Assembly (NCBI GenBank): GCA_963931495.1
Contig: OZ007020.1
Location: forward strand, 390,001 to 422,000
Direction of reading: 5' to 3'
From: an uncultured Alphaproteobacteria bacterium
GTDB taxonomy: Bacteria; Pseudomonadota; Alphaproteobacteria; Rs-D84
DNA: 32,000 nucleotides
The position numbers and the translations under genes were made by a program. Each line of letters begins with the position of its first letter. Within the stretch, counting starts at the first letter, position 1. This document shows positions 25,545 through 32,000 of this stretch, piece after piece. The notes beneath the pieces were generated by a model, which searched no databases, was not told where the DNA came from, and worked only from the letters and a program-made list of their open reading frames with translations.

Positions 25545-26402
25545 TTATCGGGTGCGCTGTAAAACAACAACTGATTCACTGTTTGGGTTTTTGCGGTCTT
25601 GGTCCACACGCATTATTTTTGCCCAATTTTGAAATCTGGATGCCAAATATTGGTACACTTTGTCCTGTTTTTGTATCCCCATGCGACCAGCCTGGGCGAT
25701 AATGTACCCATTTGGACGCACGTATGGACGCAAATTCAGTAATATATCGTGCATTTGGGCACTGCGTAAATATTCAAATATATTTGACAGATTTATCACG
25801 TCGTATTCGCGCGTCAGATGTGTGTGCAGTGATTCAATGTCGGTCCATATGAAATTGAACGGTTGTGATATTTTTTTACGCATTCCATCATATTCTGATT
25901 CTGTGGGAATGTTTTCTTGGTAATATATTGGTTCTATGCCTTGGCTGAATATCGCGCATTTTGGCATGCTTTGAACAAATTGACGGCTGGCATCTGGTAC
26001 AGATGGTAATATCTGGGCCAGGCCGGCGTCGTATGTGCAATTGTGCATATCGTTCAACAGGGTTATATAATCTGGACGTGATAATTTATGCAAGGCTGTG
26101 GATTTTATATCCATCGCCACTTTGGCACAAAAAGATACATCAAATGTATCAATATGCTTTGCACCACGCAGTGCGTAAAACATTGGTTGGTCCCCACTGG
26201 CCGCGACCGTCAATACATTATCGCATATCCCAGATGTTAATCCAGAAATCCAACGAATGTTTTCGTTCGTTAAAACGTATGACGGCGAATATTTGGCAAA
26301 CATAGGATTGCTTACATTACTGTATATGCCAACGCCGTCACCGTGCCGGATATAGCACTGTTTCGCATCGTAAATATTAAAAGTTCGTTCTGGTCGTTTC
26401 AT
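25545..26402 (-). CDS. SAM-dependent methyltransferase-fold protein, DUF3419/BtaA-like (tentative)
   Basis: 285 aa. ...NVLTVAASGDQPMFYALRGAKHIDTFDVSFCAKVAMDIKSTALHKL... resembles the DUF3419 pattern (vl.I.SaGdn.l.yll...a..v.avD.n..Q..ll.lK.aa...L). A later YDVINLSNIFEYL motif is also present. An AAGGGA SD is present. The assignment comes from motif memory only. Confidence 0.5.
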   Translation of the reverse strand: MKRPERTFNIYDAKQCYIRHGDGVGIYSNVSNPMFAKYSPSYVLTNENIRWISGLTSGICDNVLTVAASGDQPMFYALRGAKHIDTFDVSFCAKVAMDIKSTALHKLSRPDYITLLNDMHNCTYDAGLAQILPSVPDASRQFVQSMPKCAIFSQGIEPIYYQENIPTESEYDGMRKKISQPFNFIWTDIESLHTHLTREYDVINLSNIFEYLRSAQMHDILLNLRPYVRPNGYIIAQAGRMGIQKQDKVYQYLASRFQNWAKIMRVDQDRKNPNSESVVVLQRTR

Positions 26403-26526
26403 CTTTATGTCCCTTAAATATATAGTACTGGAATAAAAAATGTCAAGTTGTTAATTTTTTATAAAAAATGTTTTCAATAACTTTGTAAAATGTGATAAAA
26501 TTAAATAAATTGTTGAGGGGTTTTTC

Positions 26527-29403
26527 ATGAAAAAATTACTGACCAGTATGATAATTTGCCTGGGCTTTATTGCCGGTGCGGATGCGGCGGTACGCAGCCA
26601 GTCGGCAACAACGGTTAATCGTGGGGCGGCGGCAACAAATACGTCAACGCGTGCAACGGCAACGGCGCGTGCGGCAACCACGGCGCGCAGTGCAACGCAA
26701 CCACGGGCCACAACGGCGCGCGCCGCCACAACGGGGCGCACCACGGTCAGTCGTACCAGCGCCGCAACATCATCAACACCAACAGTCGCGGCGCGTGCCG
26801 CCACAACACAAAAAGTGTTGAATGCCGGTACCAGTGTCCAGGCGGCAAATGAAAATATTGTTGTCAGTGCAGATTGTCGCCAAAAGTATTATGGATGCAT
26901 GGATTCGTTCTGTATGCTGGATAATGACAGTGGTGGGCGCTGTATTTGCAGTGACAGAAATGCTGAACTGGATGCCATTTTAGACAAAATTCAACAACTG
27001 GACCAGCAAAGTTATCAAATGGCAACGTACGGTGTTGAACGTATAGAAATGGGGGCTGATGCGGATGCGGCAATCGCAAATGCAAATGCTGTGGCACAGT
27101 CTATTATTGATTCTGTCCCAGAAGAAGAACCAGCCAAGCGAGAGTTTAAGTTGGATTTATCATTATGGGATACGTCCAGTTTATATTCAGATAATGTATT
27201 TGATGAAACTGTTATGGTTGACCCGATTGAAGGTAAAGAAGGTGACGCGTTGTACCAGGCATCACACGCCATTTGTGCACAACAAATACCAGAATGTGCC
27301 GCGGATATGAATATGCTGCAATTAATGTATGCACAACAAATTCGTTCAGATTGCAGCGCGTATGAAAACAGCCTGAAACAGCAACAAAACGCCAGTGCAC
27401 AAAAATTGGCCGCCGCAGAACAGGCGTTGCGCAGCGCGGCACTGGAACAATATCGCAGCGCAAACAAGTATGATCTGGGGCAATGTACGGTTGAATTCAA
27501 AAATTGTATGATAACAACCGGTGGGTGTGGCGATGACTTTGCCGGCTGTGCAACAGTTGCGGCGTTTGATGCAACAAATACACGCGGTCGGGCCAGTGAT
27601 GCAGAAAAATATTCAATCAAAGGCGCTGTTACAGAAATAGAAATTAATGCGTCAACGTACGATATTTTGTTGTCTAAAAAGCCGTTGTGCGAAAGCGTGA
27701 CTCAGCAATGTGTTAATGTTGCCGATCAAGTTTGGGATACTTTTTTGCGTGATATTGCGCCCCAGGTAAAGTCAGCGGAATTAATTGCCGAAGATAATGC
27801 GCGCCAAAATTGCATTGGTAACATATCGTCATGTTTTCAACAGGCGTGTCGTGATACCATGGATCCAAATGATCCAGATGGTTCGTATGATATGTGTCTG
27901 ACACGGCCAGAAACAATGCTGGACTTATGTACAGTGCCGTTGAATGCATGTGAAATTTCTACGACGTCGGCGGCCGAAGCAGAGGCGTCGCCAATATGGG
28001 AATTTGTGGTTGCGCGTTTGCAATCAATGCGTGTGAATTCGTGTACAACCCAGGTTAAAGAATGTCTGCAATCCGAAGACAGATGTGGTTCGGATTATAC
28101 GCAGTGCATCGGTATGGATTCGTATACGATTATTCGGATGTGTCCACAAGAATTGCTGATTGGATGCCAAGGATATGATGGTGGCACCACCAGGGGGGTA
28201 AGTTCAGACAGCCAGGATGCGTTCTATTCCAGTTTGGAAAATATGATTCAAGGTATATTCTTGAATATTGATAACAACATGTTGGCCGAATGCCAGAATG
28301 CCGCGAACGAAGCAATGATAAGTGTTTGTGGGGATACGGAAAATTGTGACAGTTTGGCGGTTGATGATTCTGTGGGGGCAAATACGTTGGAATACAAGAT
28401 ATGCCAAATAAAATCGGGATCTGGTACAGATATTGATTATAACAATTGTGTGACTGATTTGTCCCAGATATCTGATGCGGCGTTGGGACGTGGCGGCGGC
28501 AAGGCAGCAAATTATGCAATTGTAATTGATGGTGAAATTGATTGGGGCGAAATATCGTTTGATGACGAAGGACGCGTTGTGTTGGGCGATGTTCCAGATA
28601 CCACAACCACATCAGACACGACCGCCACAGCAAATGCAAACGCCAGTGTGGCAACTGTTGCAAACGAACCGTTGACAGCGGCGACAACATTGCAACCGGT
28701 TATCGCATTAAACAGAACGCCGGTGGTTACAACAACGGCCCCAGAATTGGCGGCGTCGGAACAAGAACTGAATGCAGAATTGGTGTTGTTACAGAATAAT
28801 ATTAATAATGCGATTAACACAATTGAATCAAATGCCCAGGTTAATTTCTGTATGACGGGGCGCGAAGTTCAAGGTATCCGCAATGTCGTTGACAGAACGC
28901 AAGAAGGGGGCCGGTTCCCAAGTCTGACCAAGCAAATGCGTATGCTGATTGCGTCGTCGGCAATCAAGGCGGCAATGGATAACTATTATGAAAGATATGA
29001 AGAACTGACGCAAAGAAAGATGCAAGACTATGTCACGATGAATGAACGTATTGCGGAAATAAATAATCAAAATACGTTGGATGCACGTCGTGAAGCAGCG
29101 CGTATCGCGTGTGTTGAATTGGCCGAAAGTGATGGCGCATCTGGTGATGATACAGAAAATTCAACCCAGCAAAGCACAACGGTTGCATCATTAAACGGCC
29201 AACCGGGTGGACCGTTGGCGGGTGCCAGAGAGACCGCAAACGATTGGAATTATAAAGAAACAATAACATCAACGTTTGATTGGGAAACATTGGCCTGTAC
29301 CAGATGCACACGTAAACAAAATTGTTTAGATCCCAAGGGTGGCAGAAGGTTCTGTAAAGAATGGGAAGATCCAGTTGAAACATGCACAACGGTTGAATTC
29401 TGA
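26527..29403 (+). CDS. Giant secreted cysteine-rich protein, paralog 1 (958 aa), unknown family
   Basis: GAGGGG SD. Signal peptide MKKLLTSMIICLGFIAGADA|A. An Arg/Ala/Thr low-complexity tract follows (TRATATARAATTARSATQPRATTARAATTGRTTVSRTSAATSS...). After that comes about 800 aa with many Cys in conserved pairs (CRQKYYGCMDSFCMLDNDSGGRCICSD...) interspersed with Q/A/E-rich predicted helical stretches. It ends ...CTRCTRKQNCLDPKGGRRFCKEWEDPVETCTTVEF. Confidence 0.85.
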   Translation: MKKLLTSMIICLGFIAGADAAVRSQSATTVNRGAAATNTSTRATATARAATTARSATQPRATTARAATTGRTTVSRTSAATSSTPTVAARAATTQKVLNAGTSVQAANENIVVSADCRQKYYGCMDSFCMLDNDSGGRCICSDRNAELDAILDKIQQLDQQSYQMATYGVERIEMGADADAAIANANAVAQSIIDSVPEEEPAKREFKLDLSLWDTSSLYSDNVFDETVMVDPIEGKEGDALYQASHAICAQQIPECAADMNMLQLMYAQQIRSDCSAYENSLKQQQNASAQKLAAAEQALRSAALEQYRSANKYDLGQCTVEFKNCMITTGGCGDDFAGCATVAAFDATNTRGRASDAEKYSIKGAVTEIEINASTYDILLSKKPLCESVTQQCVNVADQVWDTFLRDIAPQVKSAELIAEDNARQNCIGNISSCFQQACRDTMDPNDPDGSYDMCLTRPETMLDLCTVPLNACEISTTSAAEAEASPIWEFVVARLQSMRVNSCTTQVKECLQSEDRCGSDYTQCIGMDSYTIIRMCPQELLIGCQGYDGGTTRGVSSDSQDAFYSSLENMIQGIFLNIDNNMLAECQNAANEAMISVCGDTENCDSLAVDDSVGANTLEYKICQIKSGSGTDIDYNNCVTDLSQISDAALGRGGGKAANYAIVIDGEIDWGEISFDDEGRVVLGDVPDTTTTSDTTATANANASVATVANEPLTAATTLQPVIALNRTPVVTTTAPELAASEQELNAELVLLQNNINNAINTIESNAQVNFCMTGREVQGIRNVVDRTQEGGRFPSLTKQMRMLIASSAIKAAMDNYYERYEELTQRKMQDYVTMNERIAEINNQNTLDARREAARIACVELAESDGASGDDTENSTQQSTTVASLNGQPGGPLAGARETANDWNYKETITSTFDWETLACTRCTRKQNCLDPKGGRRFCKEWEDPVETCTTVEF
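26733..26862 (+). repeat. Near-identical block 1, copy in paralog 1
   Basis: 130 bp matching 29615-29744 with 2 mismatches, by manual alignment. It spans the end of the Arg/Ala/Thr tract and the sequence VLNAGTSVQAANEN. Confidence 0.85.
27481..28107 (+). repeat. Near-identical block 2, copy in paralog 1 (perfect core 27547-28049)
   Basis: Matches 30306-30932 at an offset of 2825. I see mismatches only at 27504, 27546 and after 28049. The identical 78-aa antisense track ORFs 27713..27949 and 30538..30774 confirm it. Confidence 0.9.
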
Positions 29404-29417
29404 TTGGGACGGGATAA

Positions 29418-32000
29418 ATGAAAAGACTGGTTGCGATTTTATTAATGTTGCTGGTTATTCCTGGGGCGGATGCGGCAACACGCGGACAGAGTGCAACGGT
29501 GTCGCGTGGAAATGATGCGTCGTCGTCCACTGCAACGCGGGCGACCGCGGCGCGTGCCGCAACCACAGCACGTAGCGCGGCGGTGCCACAAACGTCGGCA
29601 CGTGCCGCCACATCGGGGCGCACCACGGTCAGTCGTACCAGCGCCGCAACATCATCAACACCAACAGTCGCGGCGCGCGCCGCCACAACACAAAAAGTGT
29701 TGAATGCCGGTACCAGTGTCCAGGCGGCAAATGAAAATACTGTTATCCAAAATCAGTGCCTTGAAAAATATTATGGTTGTATGGATTCGTTCTGTATGCT
29801 GGATAATGAAAATGGCGGTCGCTGTATTTGCAGTGATAAGAATGCAGAATATGATCAAATCTTGGCGGATATAGAACGTTTGGACCAGCAGAGTTATCAA
29901 ATGGCGACTGTTGGGGTGGAAAGTATTGAATCAGGATTTGATGCAACAGCGGCGATAAGTTCGGTGGTGAAAGATGACAGTGGTGTTGATTTGTCACTGT
30001 GGGACGCATACACCGTGATGGATGATTTGGATTCGGGTTCTGCAAATCCGTTAAGTGGCAAAGAAGGGGATGCGCTGTTTAATGCATCGCACCAACTATG
30101 TGCCCAGCAAATGCCCGAATGTAATGAACAGTTAAGTATGCTGTCACTGATGTATCGCCAGCAAATTCGTTCCGATTGCACGGCGTATGAAAACAGTTTG
30201 AATCAACAAAAACAAGCCAGCCAACAAAAATTAGCCGCGGCCCAAACGGCGTTACGCCAGGCGTCATATGAACAACTGCAAGCGGCGAATAAGTACGACT
30301 TGGGTCAATGTACGGTTGAATTCAAAAACTGTATGATAACAACCGGTGGGTGTGGCGATGACTTTGCCGGGTGTGCAACAGTTGCGGCGTTTGATGCAAC
30401 AAATACACGCGGTCGGGCCAGTGATGCAGAAAAATATTCAATCAAAGGCGCTGTTACAGAAATAGAAATTAATGCGTCAACGTACGATATTTTGTTGTCT
30501 AAAAAGCCGTTGTGCGAAAGCGTGACTCAGCAATGTGTTAATGTTGCCGATCAAGTTTGGGATACTTTTTTGCGTGATATTGCGCCCCAGGTAAAGTCAG
30601 CGGAATTAATTGCCGAAGATAATGCGCGCCAAAATTGCATTGGTAACATATCGTCATGTTTTCAACAGGCGTGTCGTGATACCATGGATCCAAATGATCC
30701 AGATGGTTCGTATGATATGTGTCTGACACGGCCAGAAACAATGCTGGACTTATGTACAGTGCCGTTGAATGCATGTGAAATTTCTACGACGTCGGCGGCC
30801 GAAGCAGAGGCGTCGCCAATATGGGAATTTGTGGTTGCGCGTTTGCAATCAATGCGTGTGAATTCGTGTACAACGCAATTCAAAGAATGTTTGCAATCCG
30901 AAGACAGATGTGGTTCGGATTATACACAGTGCGTTGGACTGGATACAGATACAATCGTGCGGATGTGCCCGTATGACGCGTTGCCCGGATGCCAGCAGGT
31001 TTATGGCAGTAATGAAATTCGCGATGATGCCGTATATGACGAATTATATGAATTCGCCCAGGGAATATTCTTGGGCATAGACAACAATATGTTGGAATAT
31101 TGCCAGTCTGCGTTGGATGAAGCGGTCATAGAAGTTTGCGGTTCAACAGATTCCTGTGACCAGTACATGTTAAATCAAGATGTTGGTACGCGTTCATTGG
31201 ATTACAAAATCTGTGATATCCAGGTTATTGATGGTACGGATATTGCGTATTCAAATTGTCGGACAACGGCATCGCAAATAACAGATGTTGAATTGGGACG
31301 CAATGCAACCGGACAAATTTCACCGTTGGGTGGCGTTATTACAGGTACAATTTATTGGGACAGTGTTGATGTTGACAGCAATGGCAACATTACCCCGGTT
31401 GATGAATATTTCGTAAATGCAGATTTGACAGATGCATCAGATTCAGAAAAAGAAATGGTGGCGTTGGAATTGGGGGCGTTACAGACCAATATAGATATGG
31501 TGTTTGGTATGATTGAATCTGACCCGACCGTACAATTCTGTATGAGTGGCCGTGAAGTTCAGGGTATTAAACCGTATTCTGGGGAAACAAAACCACGGTT
31601 CCCAGAATTAACCAAACAGGTACGTATGCAGATTGCAACATCGGCACTGAATGCCGCGCGGGATAATTATTACCAGCGATATGATGAATTAAATGAACAA
31701 ATGAGCAAAGATAATATTGAAATCGCCGAACGTATTGCCGCGGTCAGTGGTGAAAATGCAAAAGATGTTCGTCGTGAAGCCGCACGCCAGGCATGTGTGA
31801 ACTTGGCAGATATGTCTGGTATGCCAAAGTCAGAGACACCAAAATCACTGGTTGGAACAATTATTGCCGCCGCGGTTATCGCGACATCGGCGGTTCTGAT
31901 TACAGTGTTCAGTGCAGGGATTGGTGGGTTGGTCGGGCTGGCAGCAACAGTTACAGCCAAAAGCGCCATTGTCGCGGCGGCACCAATAGTATATGTGGCC
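29418..32000 (+). CDS. Giant secreted cysteine-rich protein, paralog 2 (first 861 codons; continues beyond the window)
   Basis: Not in the ORF track because there is no stop codon before the window end. The ATG is 14 nt after the paralog 1 stop. Signal peptide MKRLVAILLMLLVIPGADA|A. It has the same Arg/Ala/Thr tract and the same Cys framework (CLEKYYGCMDSFCMLDNENGGRCICSD...). The last roughly 50 codons in the window are hydrophobic (LVGTIIAAAVIATSAVLITVFSAGIGGLVGLAATV...). Confidence 0.85.
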   Translation, partial: MKRLVAILLMLLVIPGADAATRGQSATVSRGNDASSSTATRATAARAATTARSAAVPQTSARAATSGRTTVSRTSAATSSTPTVAARAATTQKVLNAGTSVQAANENTVIQNQCLEKYYGCMDSFCMLDNENGGRCICSDKNAEYDQILADIERLDQQSYQMATVGVESIESGFDATAAISSVVKDDSGVDLSLWDAYTVMDDLDSGSANPLSGKEGDALFNASHQLCAQQMPECNEQLSMLSLMYRQQIRSDCTAYENSLNQQKQASQQKLAAAQTALRQASYEQLQAANKYDLGQCTVEFKNCMITTGGCGDDFAGCATVAAFDATNTRGRASDAEKYSIKGAVTEIEINASTYDILLSKKPLCESVTQQCVNVADQVWDTFLRDIAPQVKSAELIAEDNARQNCIGNISSCFQQACRDTMDPNDPDGSYDMCLTRPETMLDLCTVPLNACEISTTSAAEAEASPIWEFVVARLQSMRVNSCTTQFKECLQSEDRCGSDYTQCVGLDTDTIVRMCPYDALPGCQQVYGSNEIRDDAVYDELYEFAQGIFLGIDNNMLEYCQSALDEAVIEVCGSTDSCDQYMLNQDVGTRSLDYKICDIQVIDGTDIAYSNCRTTASQITDVELGRNATGQISPLGGVITGTIYWDSVDVDSNGNITPVDEYFVNADLTDASDSEKEMVALELGALQTNIDMVFGMIESDPTVQFCMSGREVQGIKPYSGETKPRFPELTKQVRMQIATSALNAARDNYYQRYDELNEQMSKDNIEIAERIAAVSGENAKDVRREAARQACVNLADMSGMPKSETPKSLVGTIIAAAVIATSAVLITVFSAGIGGLVGLAATVTAKSAIVAAAPIVYVA
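29615..29744 (+). repeat. Near-identical block 1, copy in paralog 2
   Basis: Matches 26733-26862 at an offset of 2882. The identical antisense track ORF N-termini (MAARAATVGVDDVAALVRLTVVRP) corroborate the match. Confidence 0.85.
30306..30932 (+). repeat. Near-identical block 2, copy in paralog 2 (perfect core 30372-30874)
   Basis: See 27481-28107. The flanking coding sequence of the two paralogs is far more diverged. Confidence 0.9.

Follow-up and report, generated by a model that had tools for sequence, protein, structure and literature searches.

A tandem pair of genes for large cysteine-rich proteins

Within a 32,000-nucleotide (nt) stretch of DNA from an uncultured alphaproteobacterium of the Rs-D84 lineage (contig OZ007020.1, positions 390,001 to 422,000 of the forward strand; this whole stretch is referred to below as the window), two adjacent genes encode large, cysteine-rich proteins with predicted signal peptides, which we place in a family here called F0. 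The first open reading frame (ORF), ORF1 (positions 26527 to 29403, plus strand), is complete and encodes a protein of 958 amino acids (aa) of the putatively unanchored type, with a mature mass of ~101 kDa and an isoelectric point (pI) of 4.4. The second, ORF2 (29418 to 32000, plus strand), is cut by the end of the window, which holds the first 861 of the 957 codons of a paralog predicted to be membrane anchored; the full-length protein of 957 aa is encoded in contig L001, which is 99% identical to the window. An earlier note, made from the sequence alone, had described two co-oriented paralogous genes lying 14 nt apart; the ORF calls agree with this layout, and the paralogy was confirmed by BLASTP, with 62% identity over 881 aa (E = 0). 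The 14-nt spacer (29404 to 29417, plus strand) contains a GGGA Shine-Dalgarno-like element, and no terminator was seen in it, so that the two genes are probably co-transcribed. Upstream of ORF1, an AT-rich intergenic region (26403 to 26526, plus strand), shared divergently with a DUF3419-like gene, carries the Shine-Dalgarno-like sequence GAGGGG 8 nt before the ATG. A sequence scan of this region found no convincing plus-strand sigma-70 consensus, and the promoter and terminator scan of the gene region as a whole was uninformative. Terminator-like hairpins at 26807 and 29689 lie on the antisense strand, inside the GC-rich Arg/Ala(/Thr)-coding tract, and were set aside as by-products; likewise, the long antisense ORFs at 26451 to 26804 (minus strand) and 29033 to 29686 (minus strand) (MAARAATVGVDD...) are by-products of the Arg/Ala/Thr-coding tract and not genes. 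Rfam gave no match near ORF1 or ORF2.

The absence of database annotation and the low-complexity N terminus might suggest that these ORFs are spurious or decaying and have no function. However, at least 1184 homologs were found, falling into 906 clusters at 50% identity, with an invariant cysteine framework and conserved synteny. Moreover, the ratio of nonsynonymous to synonymous substitution rates (dN/dS) between strains is 0.095 (15 synonymous and 5 nonsynonymous changes), the same as for rpoA, and the host genome, of less than 1 Mb, shows no accumulation of pseudogenes. Given the number of homologs and the dN/dS value, a chance ORF is ruled out and the reading as nonfunctional sequence is effectively refuted; ORF1 and ORF2 are real genes under purifying selection.

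Domain architecture of the F0 proteins

The N terminus of ORF1 reads as a Sec-type signal peptide of 20 residues (aa 1 to 20; 26527 to 26586, plus strand), with the sequence MKKLLTSMIICLGFIAGADA|A. Inspected by eye, both ORFs have the classical n/h/c layout and the ending GADA|A that had been proposed for them, and the layout and an A-x-A cleavage site are shared by the 48 homologs (55 to 87% identity) that were aligned for this analysis. A lipobox was found neither in the two ORFs nor in these homologs, the predicted cleavage being at A-D-A|A with no conserved Cys at position +1. The signal peptide is followed by a basic Arg/Ala/Thr tract (26587 to 26862, plus strand; aa 21 to 112 of ORF1) with 10 Arg, a net charge of +10 and a pI of 12, which is predicted to be disordered (predicted local distance difference test [pLDDT] below 50); the median net charge of the tract in the family is +11. 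Such a tract had been reported for both proteins at a length of about 70 residues; its presence in both holds, and the length is corrected to about 90. An Arg-rich tract after the signal peptide is also common to unrelated exported families, namely, F0, F0d, C4 and C12 (e.g., L001 16957 to 17150 and L037 7191 to 7300), where AR-x-A or (A/Q)RMP(T/S)MP motifs, including RMPTMP, recur. Such a shared tract might direct sorting, anchoring or processing in all of these families.

The greater part of ORF1 consists of an acidic, cysteine-framed body (26863 to 29214, plus strand; aa 113 to 896; 33 Cys), predicted to be mostly alpha-helical. In both proteins, the body has a pI of 4.2 and a net charge of -59 to -66. 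An AlphaFold2 (AF2) model, built on the 48-sequence alignment, shows long helices, two small beta elements at residues 622 to 686 and a four-stranded C-terminal sheet at 897 to 957. The modeled body, mostly helical with small beta elements, is consistent with the alternation of helical segments with the Cys framework that had been anticipated from the sequence. As seen in the conservation profile (ORF1 numbering), the most conserved cores span aa 110 to 180 and 240 to 540, and the variable, indel-rich parts are the basic tail and aa 181 to 240, 541 to 560, 620 to 760 and 860 to 900. The protein ends with a predicted beta domain of ~60 aa (29215 to 29400, plus strand), which contains 5 Cys and four strands (aa 897 to 905, 909 to 918, 923 to 933 and 950 to 957 in the AF2 model) and terminates in an invariant Phe. 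The invariant C-terminal residues in the 48-sequence alignment are F958, C953, W946 and C943.

Conserved cysteines and putative disulfide bonds

Each mature protein contains 38 cysteine residues, in ORF1, in ORF2 and in most homologs. All 38 are kept in the 48-sequence alignment, 35 of them being invariant and 3 present in at least 90% of the rows, in agreement with the positional conservation that had been claimed from the comparison of the two ORFs, and the cysteine motifs quoted there are all present. Across the wider superfamily, the number of mature Cys clusters at 34, 36, 38, 40 and 42, and 124 of 146 sequences have an even number. Furthermore, cysteines are lost in pairs: Cys 441 and 457 are missing jointly in 16 sequences and singly in none, and further joint losses affect the pairs 513/539, 429/475, 626/641 and 927/953, each jointly lost pair connecting adjacent helices or strands of the AF2 model. 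The paired losses and the mostly even counts support the view that the conserved cysteines form disulfides.

Two copies of a four-Cys module, C-x6-C-x6-CGxD[FY]xxC, stand out in the framework. The first lies at 27484 to 27549 (plus strand; aa 320 to 341; C-x6-C-x6-CGxDFxxC) and the second at 28042 to 28107 (plus strand; aa 506 to 527); they align with each other with a probability of 96.6% in hhalign, and the same module is found in the neighboring families C12 and C16 (hhalign probabilities of 93% and 85%, respectively). Between the modules, residues 441 to 457 of ORF1 (27847 to 27897) form an almost invariant acidic loop, C-RDTM-DPNDPDGSYDM-C, whose two cysteines are lost only together. If closed by a disulfide, this loop may bind Ca2+ or another ligand.

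Unanchored and anchored copies

The two copies differ in a hydrophobic region that, in ORF2-type proteins, follows the last long helix and precedes the C-terminal domain. In the window, a Kyte-Doolittle scan places the start of this Gly/Ala-rich segment, a putative hairpin of ~60 aa, at about 31842 (plus strand; 31842 to 32000 being the part inside the window); in the full ORF2 protein, the segment covers aa 809 to about 870 or 875. Most homologs have such a region, with the typical sequence ..LPKSPNPPKxAFGK-ILSAVALVGAAVAIPFTGG-...AGIGLLGN.., and ORF1-type homologs have a short polar linker in its place. In 17 of 18 co-oriented tandem pairs, the hydrophobic segment is present in the second copy only. 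In addition, ORF1 is 56 to 64% identical to first copies elsewhere and 45 to 56% identical to second copies, and ORF2 shows the opposite preference. Because the cross-genome identities group ORF1 with first and ORF2 with second copies, the duplication is placed before speciation, the copies having specialized into putatively unanchored and anchored forms.

A Gly/Ala-rich hydrophobic helical hairpin serving as a membrane anchor is a feature of the glycine-zipper two-transmembrane proteins, such as SlyB/Pcp and the Rickettsia 17-kDa antigen. Those proteins, however, have a lipoprotein signal, which F0 lacks, and the F0 segment is longer (~60 aa) and lies inside a protein of 957 aa. The C-terminal region of ORF2 gave no Gly-zipper match in Pfam. 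The equivalent segment of a distant 716-aa paralog gave sub-threshold matches to Gly-zipper_Omp, YMGG and Rick_17kDa (E = 0.002 to 0.85), of which Gly-zipper_Omp scored 18.2 bits against a cut-off of 25.

A glycine-zipper-like hairpin adjoining long helices could also belong to a translocon or pore, in which the helical body would be a soluble pre-pore and the hairpin would insert into the membrane of a partner cell, or into the bacterium's own outer membrane, as a channel for metabolite uptake. Such a channel would offset the missing transporters of Rs-D84, whose genomes lack canonical ones (PMC12306168), and the neighboring family C4 also has Gly-rich hydrophobic segments. Nevertheless, Foldseek revealed no structural resemblance to alpha-pore-forming toxins of the ClyA, Hbl or Nhe type or to translocators (NheA, E = 8), half of the family has no hairpin at all, ORF1 among them, and extensive disulfide stapling is difficult to reconcile with the large refolding of alpha-pore-formers. 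Overall, we regard a pore as very improbable.

Possible recombination between the copies

A 545-nt tract of ORF1 (27505 to 28049, plus strand) equals positions 30330 to 30874 of ORF2 but for one base, and a second tract of 126 nt shows the same near identity, 26732 to 26857 matching 29614 to 29739 with a single difference. Outside these tracts, the DNA of the two ORFs is about 50 to 75% identical. Since both the ORF2 of L001 and that of P0038, a database and cluster representative, keep diverged sequence across the 545-nt tract, this tract would reflect either a recent ORF1-to-ORF2 gene conversion or a collapse during metagenome assembly. Part of the similarity between ORF1 and ORF2 would then stem from the recent conversion tract. 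We also observed a hybrid protein, P0002, which joins the 5' part of an ORF2 to the 3' part of an ORF1. The within-genome identity of tandem pairs spans 39% to 87%, which argues that conversion does occur in the F0 family.

Taken further, these observations could mean that the tandem paralogs are variable surface antigens that alter an exposed coat by gene conversion, as in Anaplasma Msp2 or the variant surface proteins (VSPs) of Giardia. The identical 545-nt tract between paralogs whose DNA is otherwise about 60 to 70% identical, the other state of this tract in a sister strain, the P0002 hybrid, the range of within-genome identities and the fast divergence between species would all fit. However, it is the most conserved core, and not the variable regions, that the converted tract spans, so that conversion would homogenize rather than diversify the copies; moreover, the loci examined contain just one or two copies and showed no store of silent cassettes, dN/dS is 0.095, and the identical tract could itself be an assembly collapse. 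Antigenic variation is therefore harder to credit than even a pore. The likeness to the VSPs and other high-cysteine membrane proteins of Giardia, a cysteine-rich anchored coat in an anaerobic gut dweller, encoded by a multigene family with recombination and with presumed protease resistance, is one of principle. The VSPs are eukaryotic and dominated by CXXC motifs (F0 has one), they have a single C-terminal transmembrane segment with a CRGKA tail, and they share no homology with F0. The Cys content of VSPs is about 12%, compared with 4.5% computed for F0.

A family without recognized relatives

Searches of Pfam, NCBIfam and PHROGs with both ORFs, with the 48 homologs singly and with the distant paralogs returned nothing above noise. 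The matches to HCMV_UL116, DUF6291, Ribosomal_S4 and DUF5460 were considered sub-threshold noise; that of DUF5460 to the C terminus of ORF2 (E = 0.008) was rejected because it recurs in no other family member. A profile search of all PDB sequences gave nothing at E <= 1. When the AF2 model was compared with PDB and BFVD by Foldseek, no hit had E < 0.05; the lowest E-values were 0.7 and 0.07, and template modeling scores were <=0.1. No relatives were found by tblastn in phage and plasmid collections, nor was a description of these proteins found in the literature. These results uphold the earlier view of an unrecognized family without known adhesin, autotransporter, RHS or RTX signatures. What defines F0, and is present in both ORFs of the window, is the combination of the signal peptide, the basic tract, a start motif C-x6-C-[ML]-D-x-F-C...C-x-C, two CGxD[FY]xxC modules and a C-terminal beta domain with Phe as its last residue. 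At the level of the protein family, F0 is new; the predicted fold, of disulfide-stapled helices, is probably new as well. As to its role, F0 is most likely one more case of a lineage-specific envelope or surface protein in a host-dependent microbe, which is a broad class.

The comparison with the chlamydial envelope protein OmcB, offered at the outset as an analogy, holds only superficially. Like OmcB and OmcA, the F0 proteins are predicted to be exported, come from a host-dependent bacterium, have a basic region after the signal peptide and have a high Cys content, which in both cases is thought to stabilize the envelope by disulfides. The basic N-terminal region of OmcB binds glycosaminoglycans. 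The analogy does not extend to fold, lipobox or sequence: OmcB is beta-rich and ~60 kDa, whereas ORF1 and ORF2 are predicted to be alpha-helical, ~100 kDa and without a lipobox; the OmcB family model (Chlam_OMP6 / DUF11 repeats) matched neither ORF nor any of the 48 homologs in Pfam or NCBIfam; and OmcB has no counterpart to the hydrophobic hairpin or the C-terminal beta domain.

Disulfide-stapled helix-turn-helix units with a fixed Cys spacing on neighboring helices also occur in Helicobacter Hcp proteins, which consist of Sel1-like repeats (SLRs), and in CHCH proteins with twin CX9C motifs. F0, however, has CX6C spacing and not the CX9C or SLR pattern, is far larger and lacks a repeat architecture, and neither Sel1 nor CHCH was matched in Pfam by the ORFs or their homologs. 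A third resemblance is to trimeric autotransporters of the YadA type, which likewise have a signal peptide and long helices and finish in a short beta unit of four strands with a terminal Phe. We rejected this assignment, as the C-terminal domain is charged and contains 5 Cys, and the region equivalent to the passenger contains 33. A passenger with 33 Cys is incompatible with type V secretion, in which the passenger is unfolded. Pfam gave no match to YadA_anchor or to the Autotransporter beta-barrel domain, the AF2 C terminus is only a four-stranded Cys-rich sheet and, in the ORF2 type, the beta unit comes after a hydrophobic alpha hairpin. The likenesses to OmcB, Hcp and CHCH proteins, Giardia VSPs, SlyB-type zippers and trimeric autotransporters are thus presented as analogies of principle only.

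Host lineage and gene neighborhood

One genome per species of the Genome Taxonomy Database was scanned, which yielded 274 relatives, and 78 loci were kept, with ~20 kb around each match; for clustering, these were combined with contigs L001 to L003 and the window (n = 82). All 78 kept loci come from metagenome-assembled genomes labeled as Alphaproteobacteria, "Rickettsiales" or Candidatus Enterousia, save two evident mis-binnings. The locus belongs to Ca. Enterousia, order Rs-D84, matching the suggestion of an under-studied lineage. Enterousia live in the guts of mammals and birds and have genomes of 0.75 to 1.0 Mb without pseudogene accumulation (PMC12306168). Rs-D84 members reportedly lack a respiratory chain, standard transporters and most biosynthetic pathways and have been proposed to be obligate symbionts or parasites that depend on partner cells via uncharacterized membrane proteins (PMC12306168).

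Between genomes in which RpoA and SecY are 84 to 96% identical, F0 proteins are only 42 to 64% identical, and their Cys scaffold is kept. Distant paralog subfamilies of ~716, 830 and 856 aa are homologous to F0 (hhalign probability, 100%) and lie within ~20 kb in several genomes. The 716-aa type evolves slowly (74 to 86% identity) and has its hydrophobic segment inside the C-terminal domain.

In the window, the str, S10, spc and alpha ribosomal operons lie upstream. The conserved block seen across the 78 loci consists of rpoA-rplQ, an oppositely oriented gene for a DUF3419/BtaA-like S-adenosylmethionine (SAM) enzyme, one or two F0 genes, and families C3, C4, C11, C12 and C16. Among these, C3 is a protein of ~335 aa with two transmembrane helices, C4 is a Cys-rich protein of ~700 aa with two Gly-rich hydrophobic segments, and C11 combines CarboxypepD_reg, Cys-rich repeats and an OmpA peptidoglycan-binding domain. 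F0, C3 and C4 stay adjacent where the block is rearranged. A conserved island downstream of the pair (L001 15832 to 22278, L082 2954 to 14760 and L037 3484 to 11123) contains C3, C4, the CarboxypepD_reg and OmpA protein, the Cys-rich families C12, C16, C23 and C36, and distant F0 paralogs.

Two further ORFs at the other end of the window bear on the envelope type of the host. Both are on the plus strand (2543 to 3022 and 3614 to 4432), have no Pfam match, show alternating hydrophobic residues and end in ..GVKFGAQF and ..IGAEFSVEF, respectively. They probably encode outer-membrane beta-barrels, and on this basis the host probably has a diderm envelope with the beta-barrel assembly machinery (BAM).

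A putative role in the cell envelope

The role in the envelope or in host interaction that had been put forward from the sequence is plausible: the proteins have a predicted signal peptide and a putative membrane hairpin and show signs of disulfide bonding, their conserved neighbors include Cys-rich exported proteins and an OmpA-domain protein, and they diverge fast between species. We tentatively favor, as a possibility somewhat short of an even chance, that ORF1 and ORF2 are elongated helical proteins that serve as the soluble and anchored subunits of a disulfide-stabilized envelope or attachment layer in Ca. Enterousia. For this layer we infer export and cleavage, disulfides, the membrane that holds the hairpin, association between the two types, polymer binding by the tail and a structural or adhesive role, as follows. 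Both proteins would be exported by Sec and cleaved after ..ADA. Outside the cytoplasm, the acidic helical body of ~780 aa would be locked by ~16 disulfides, many of them formed from C-x6-C pairs on neighboring helices, and the 60-aa C-terminal beta domain by about three more. The ORF2 type would be held in the membrane by the ~60-aa Gly/Ala-rich hairpin just before the C-terminal domain, and the ORF1 type, without a hairpin, would associate with this anchored partner via the conserved core (aa 240 to 540). The disordered tail of ~90 aa, with its net charge of +10, could bind anionic polymers, be it the cell's own peptidoglycan or lipopolysaccharide, the acidic bodies of neighboring subunits or the surface of a partner cell. 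Assembled with the Cys-rich exported proteins of the adjacent genes, the two would yield a coat or attachment layer that withstands proteases and stress.

Several points weigh against such a layer. Expression, localization and disulfide state of both proteins are predicted. The AF2 model is of moderate quality, with a mean pLDDT of 64 and a predicted template modeling score of 0.45, the ordered body reaching a pLDDT of 70 to 88. The paired Cys losses represent few independent events and are partly alignment dependent, so that they are supportive and not proof of disulfide bonding. Because Rs-D84 reportedly lacks respiratory chains, the DsbB-quinone route to ~19 disulfides per protein would have no obvious electron sink. 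The codon adaptation index, which was not discriminating, is 0.62 and lies only at the low end of the ribosomal-protein range, and the designation of the proteins as "major," in the sense of highly expressed, is therefore unsupported. The short-range dN/dS of 0.095 is that of ordinary purifying selection and not of diversifying selection. Finally, the only export signal seen is that for Sec, and the locus has no linked system for translocation across the outer membrane, for which reason surface exposure is unproven and the periplasm or inner membrane is the default location.

This last point leads to a second reading, in which the ORF2 type, anchored in the inner membrane, and the soluble ORF1 type would form a periplasmic scaffold, a disulfide-stapled strut linking the inner membrane to peptidoglycan and to the outer membrane, with a role like that of Lpp, OmpA or TolA and without partner contact. 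Besides the Sec signal, it would account for the strongly hydrophobic first half of the hairpin (Kyte-Doolittle value of 2.3 over 19 aa), which would act as a SecYEG stop-transfer sequence, for the apparently diderm host with an OmpA-domain peptidoglycan-binding protein as a neighbor, and for the highly conserved core under ordinary purifying selection. Nonetheless, divergence between species far faster than that of RpoA and SecY, together with an expanded superfamily, is more typical of exposed proteins, and the Lys that flank the hairpin toward the body, together with the uncharged loop between its helices, fit the positive-inside rule poorly. A C-terminal Phe is enriched in outer-membrane proteins, and the invariant Phe of F0 is thus another feature at odds with such a scaffold. 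Overall, we consider a periplasmic scaffold the main rival, somewhat less likely than the layer; if F0 were an internal scaffold of this kind, it would still be a new family, though of narrower interest.

A bolder form of the envelope or attachment layer would make F0 and the co-clustered Cys-rich families the main material of a previously unseen envelope or contact organelle, used to attach to a partner, possibly a gut protist or bacterium, and to draw metabolites from it. We hold this to be improbable; if true, folding would need an unconventional disulfide route independent of respiration. Rs-D84 and Enterousia are widespread in human, bird and ruminant guts, where they would have to attach to and feed on partner cells. 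A lineage-specific superfamily of ~100-kDa disulfide-rich exported proteins, with several paralogs per genome that cluster beside other genes for Cys-rich envelope proteins, would provide the most obvious candidates for the interface with their surroundings. It also poses a puzzle, namely, a strict fermenter without quinone-linked respiration that would make proteins with ~19 disulfides. The F0 proteins are concrete targets for metaproteomics, for localization by antibodies or fluorescence in situ hybridization and for structural work.

Other genes of the window and of related loci

The DUF3419 (BtaA-like)/SAM-methyltransferase-like gene (25545 to 26402, minus strand; 285 aa) is divergent from ORF1 and matches Pfam PF11899 with E = 6e-10 and 39 bits against a cut-off of 28. 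It adjoins F0 in 42 of the 82 clustered sequences, rearranged ones included, and evolves fast, with a median identity of 39%. Its product may modify lipids or exported proteins.

The C3 protein was modeled with a pLDDT of 75, its C-terminal alpha/beta domain exceeding 90. No significant PDB match was found for this domain, the best being a Can2/SfsA nuclease-like fold (E = 0.12), which gives no functional lead. No homology between C4 and F0 was detected by hhalign.

At 4758 to 5324 (plus strand), the window encodes a secreted protein of 188 aa in which a Cys-rich repeat of the Ephrin_rec_like type was matched at 31 bits (cut-off, 23). This module is mostly seen in eukaryotic surface proteins and hints at possible contact with eukaryotes. 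With this protein and the several Cys-rich exported families near F0, the secretome of the host appears to be unusually Cys-rich overall.

Between rpsK and rpoA, a small secreted Cys-containing ORF of 148 aa (22805 to 23251, minus strand) occupies the same position in 38 loci; it has no Pfam match and diverges fast, with a median identity of 49%. In the same interval, a restriction-modification pair of the TaqI type (N6_N4_Mtase and RE_TaqI; L001 4558 to 6223) is inserted in L001 and L002, two contigs that are 99% identical to the window, which lacks the pair at 22647 to 22804. The pair represents a strain-level indel inside the ribosomal-protein gene region.

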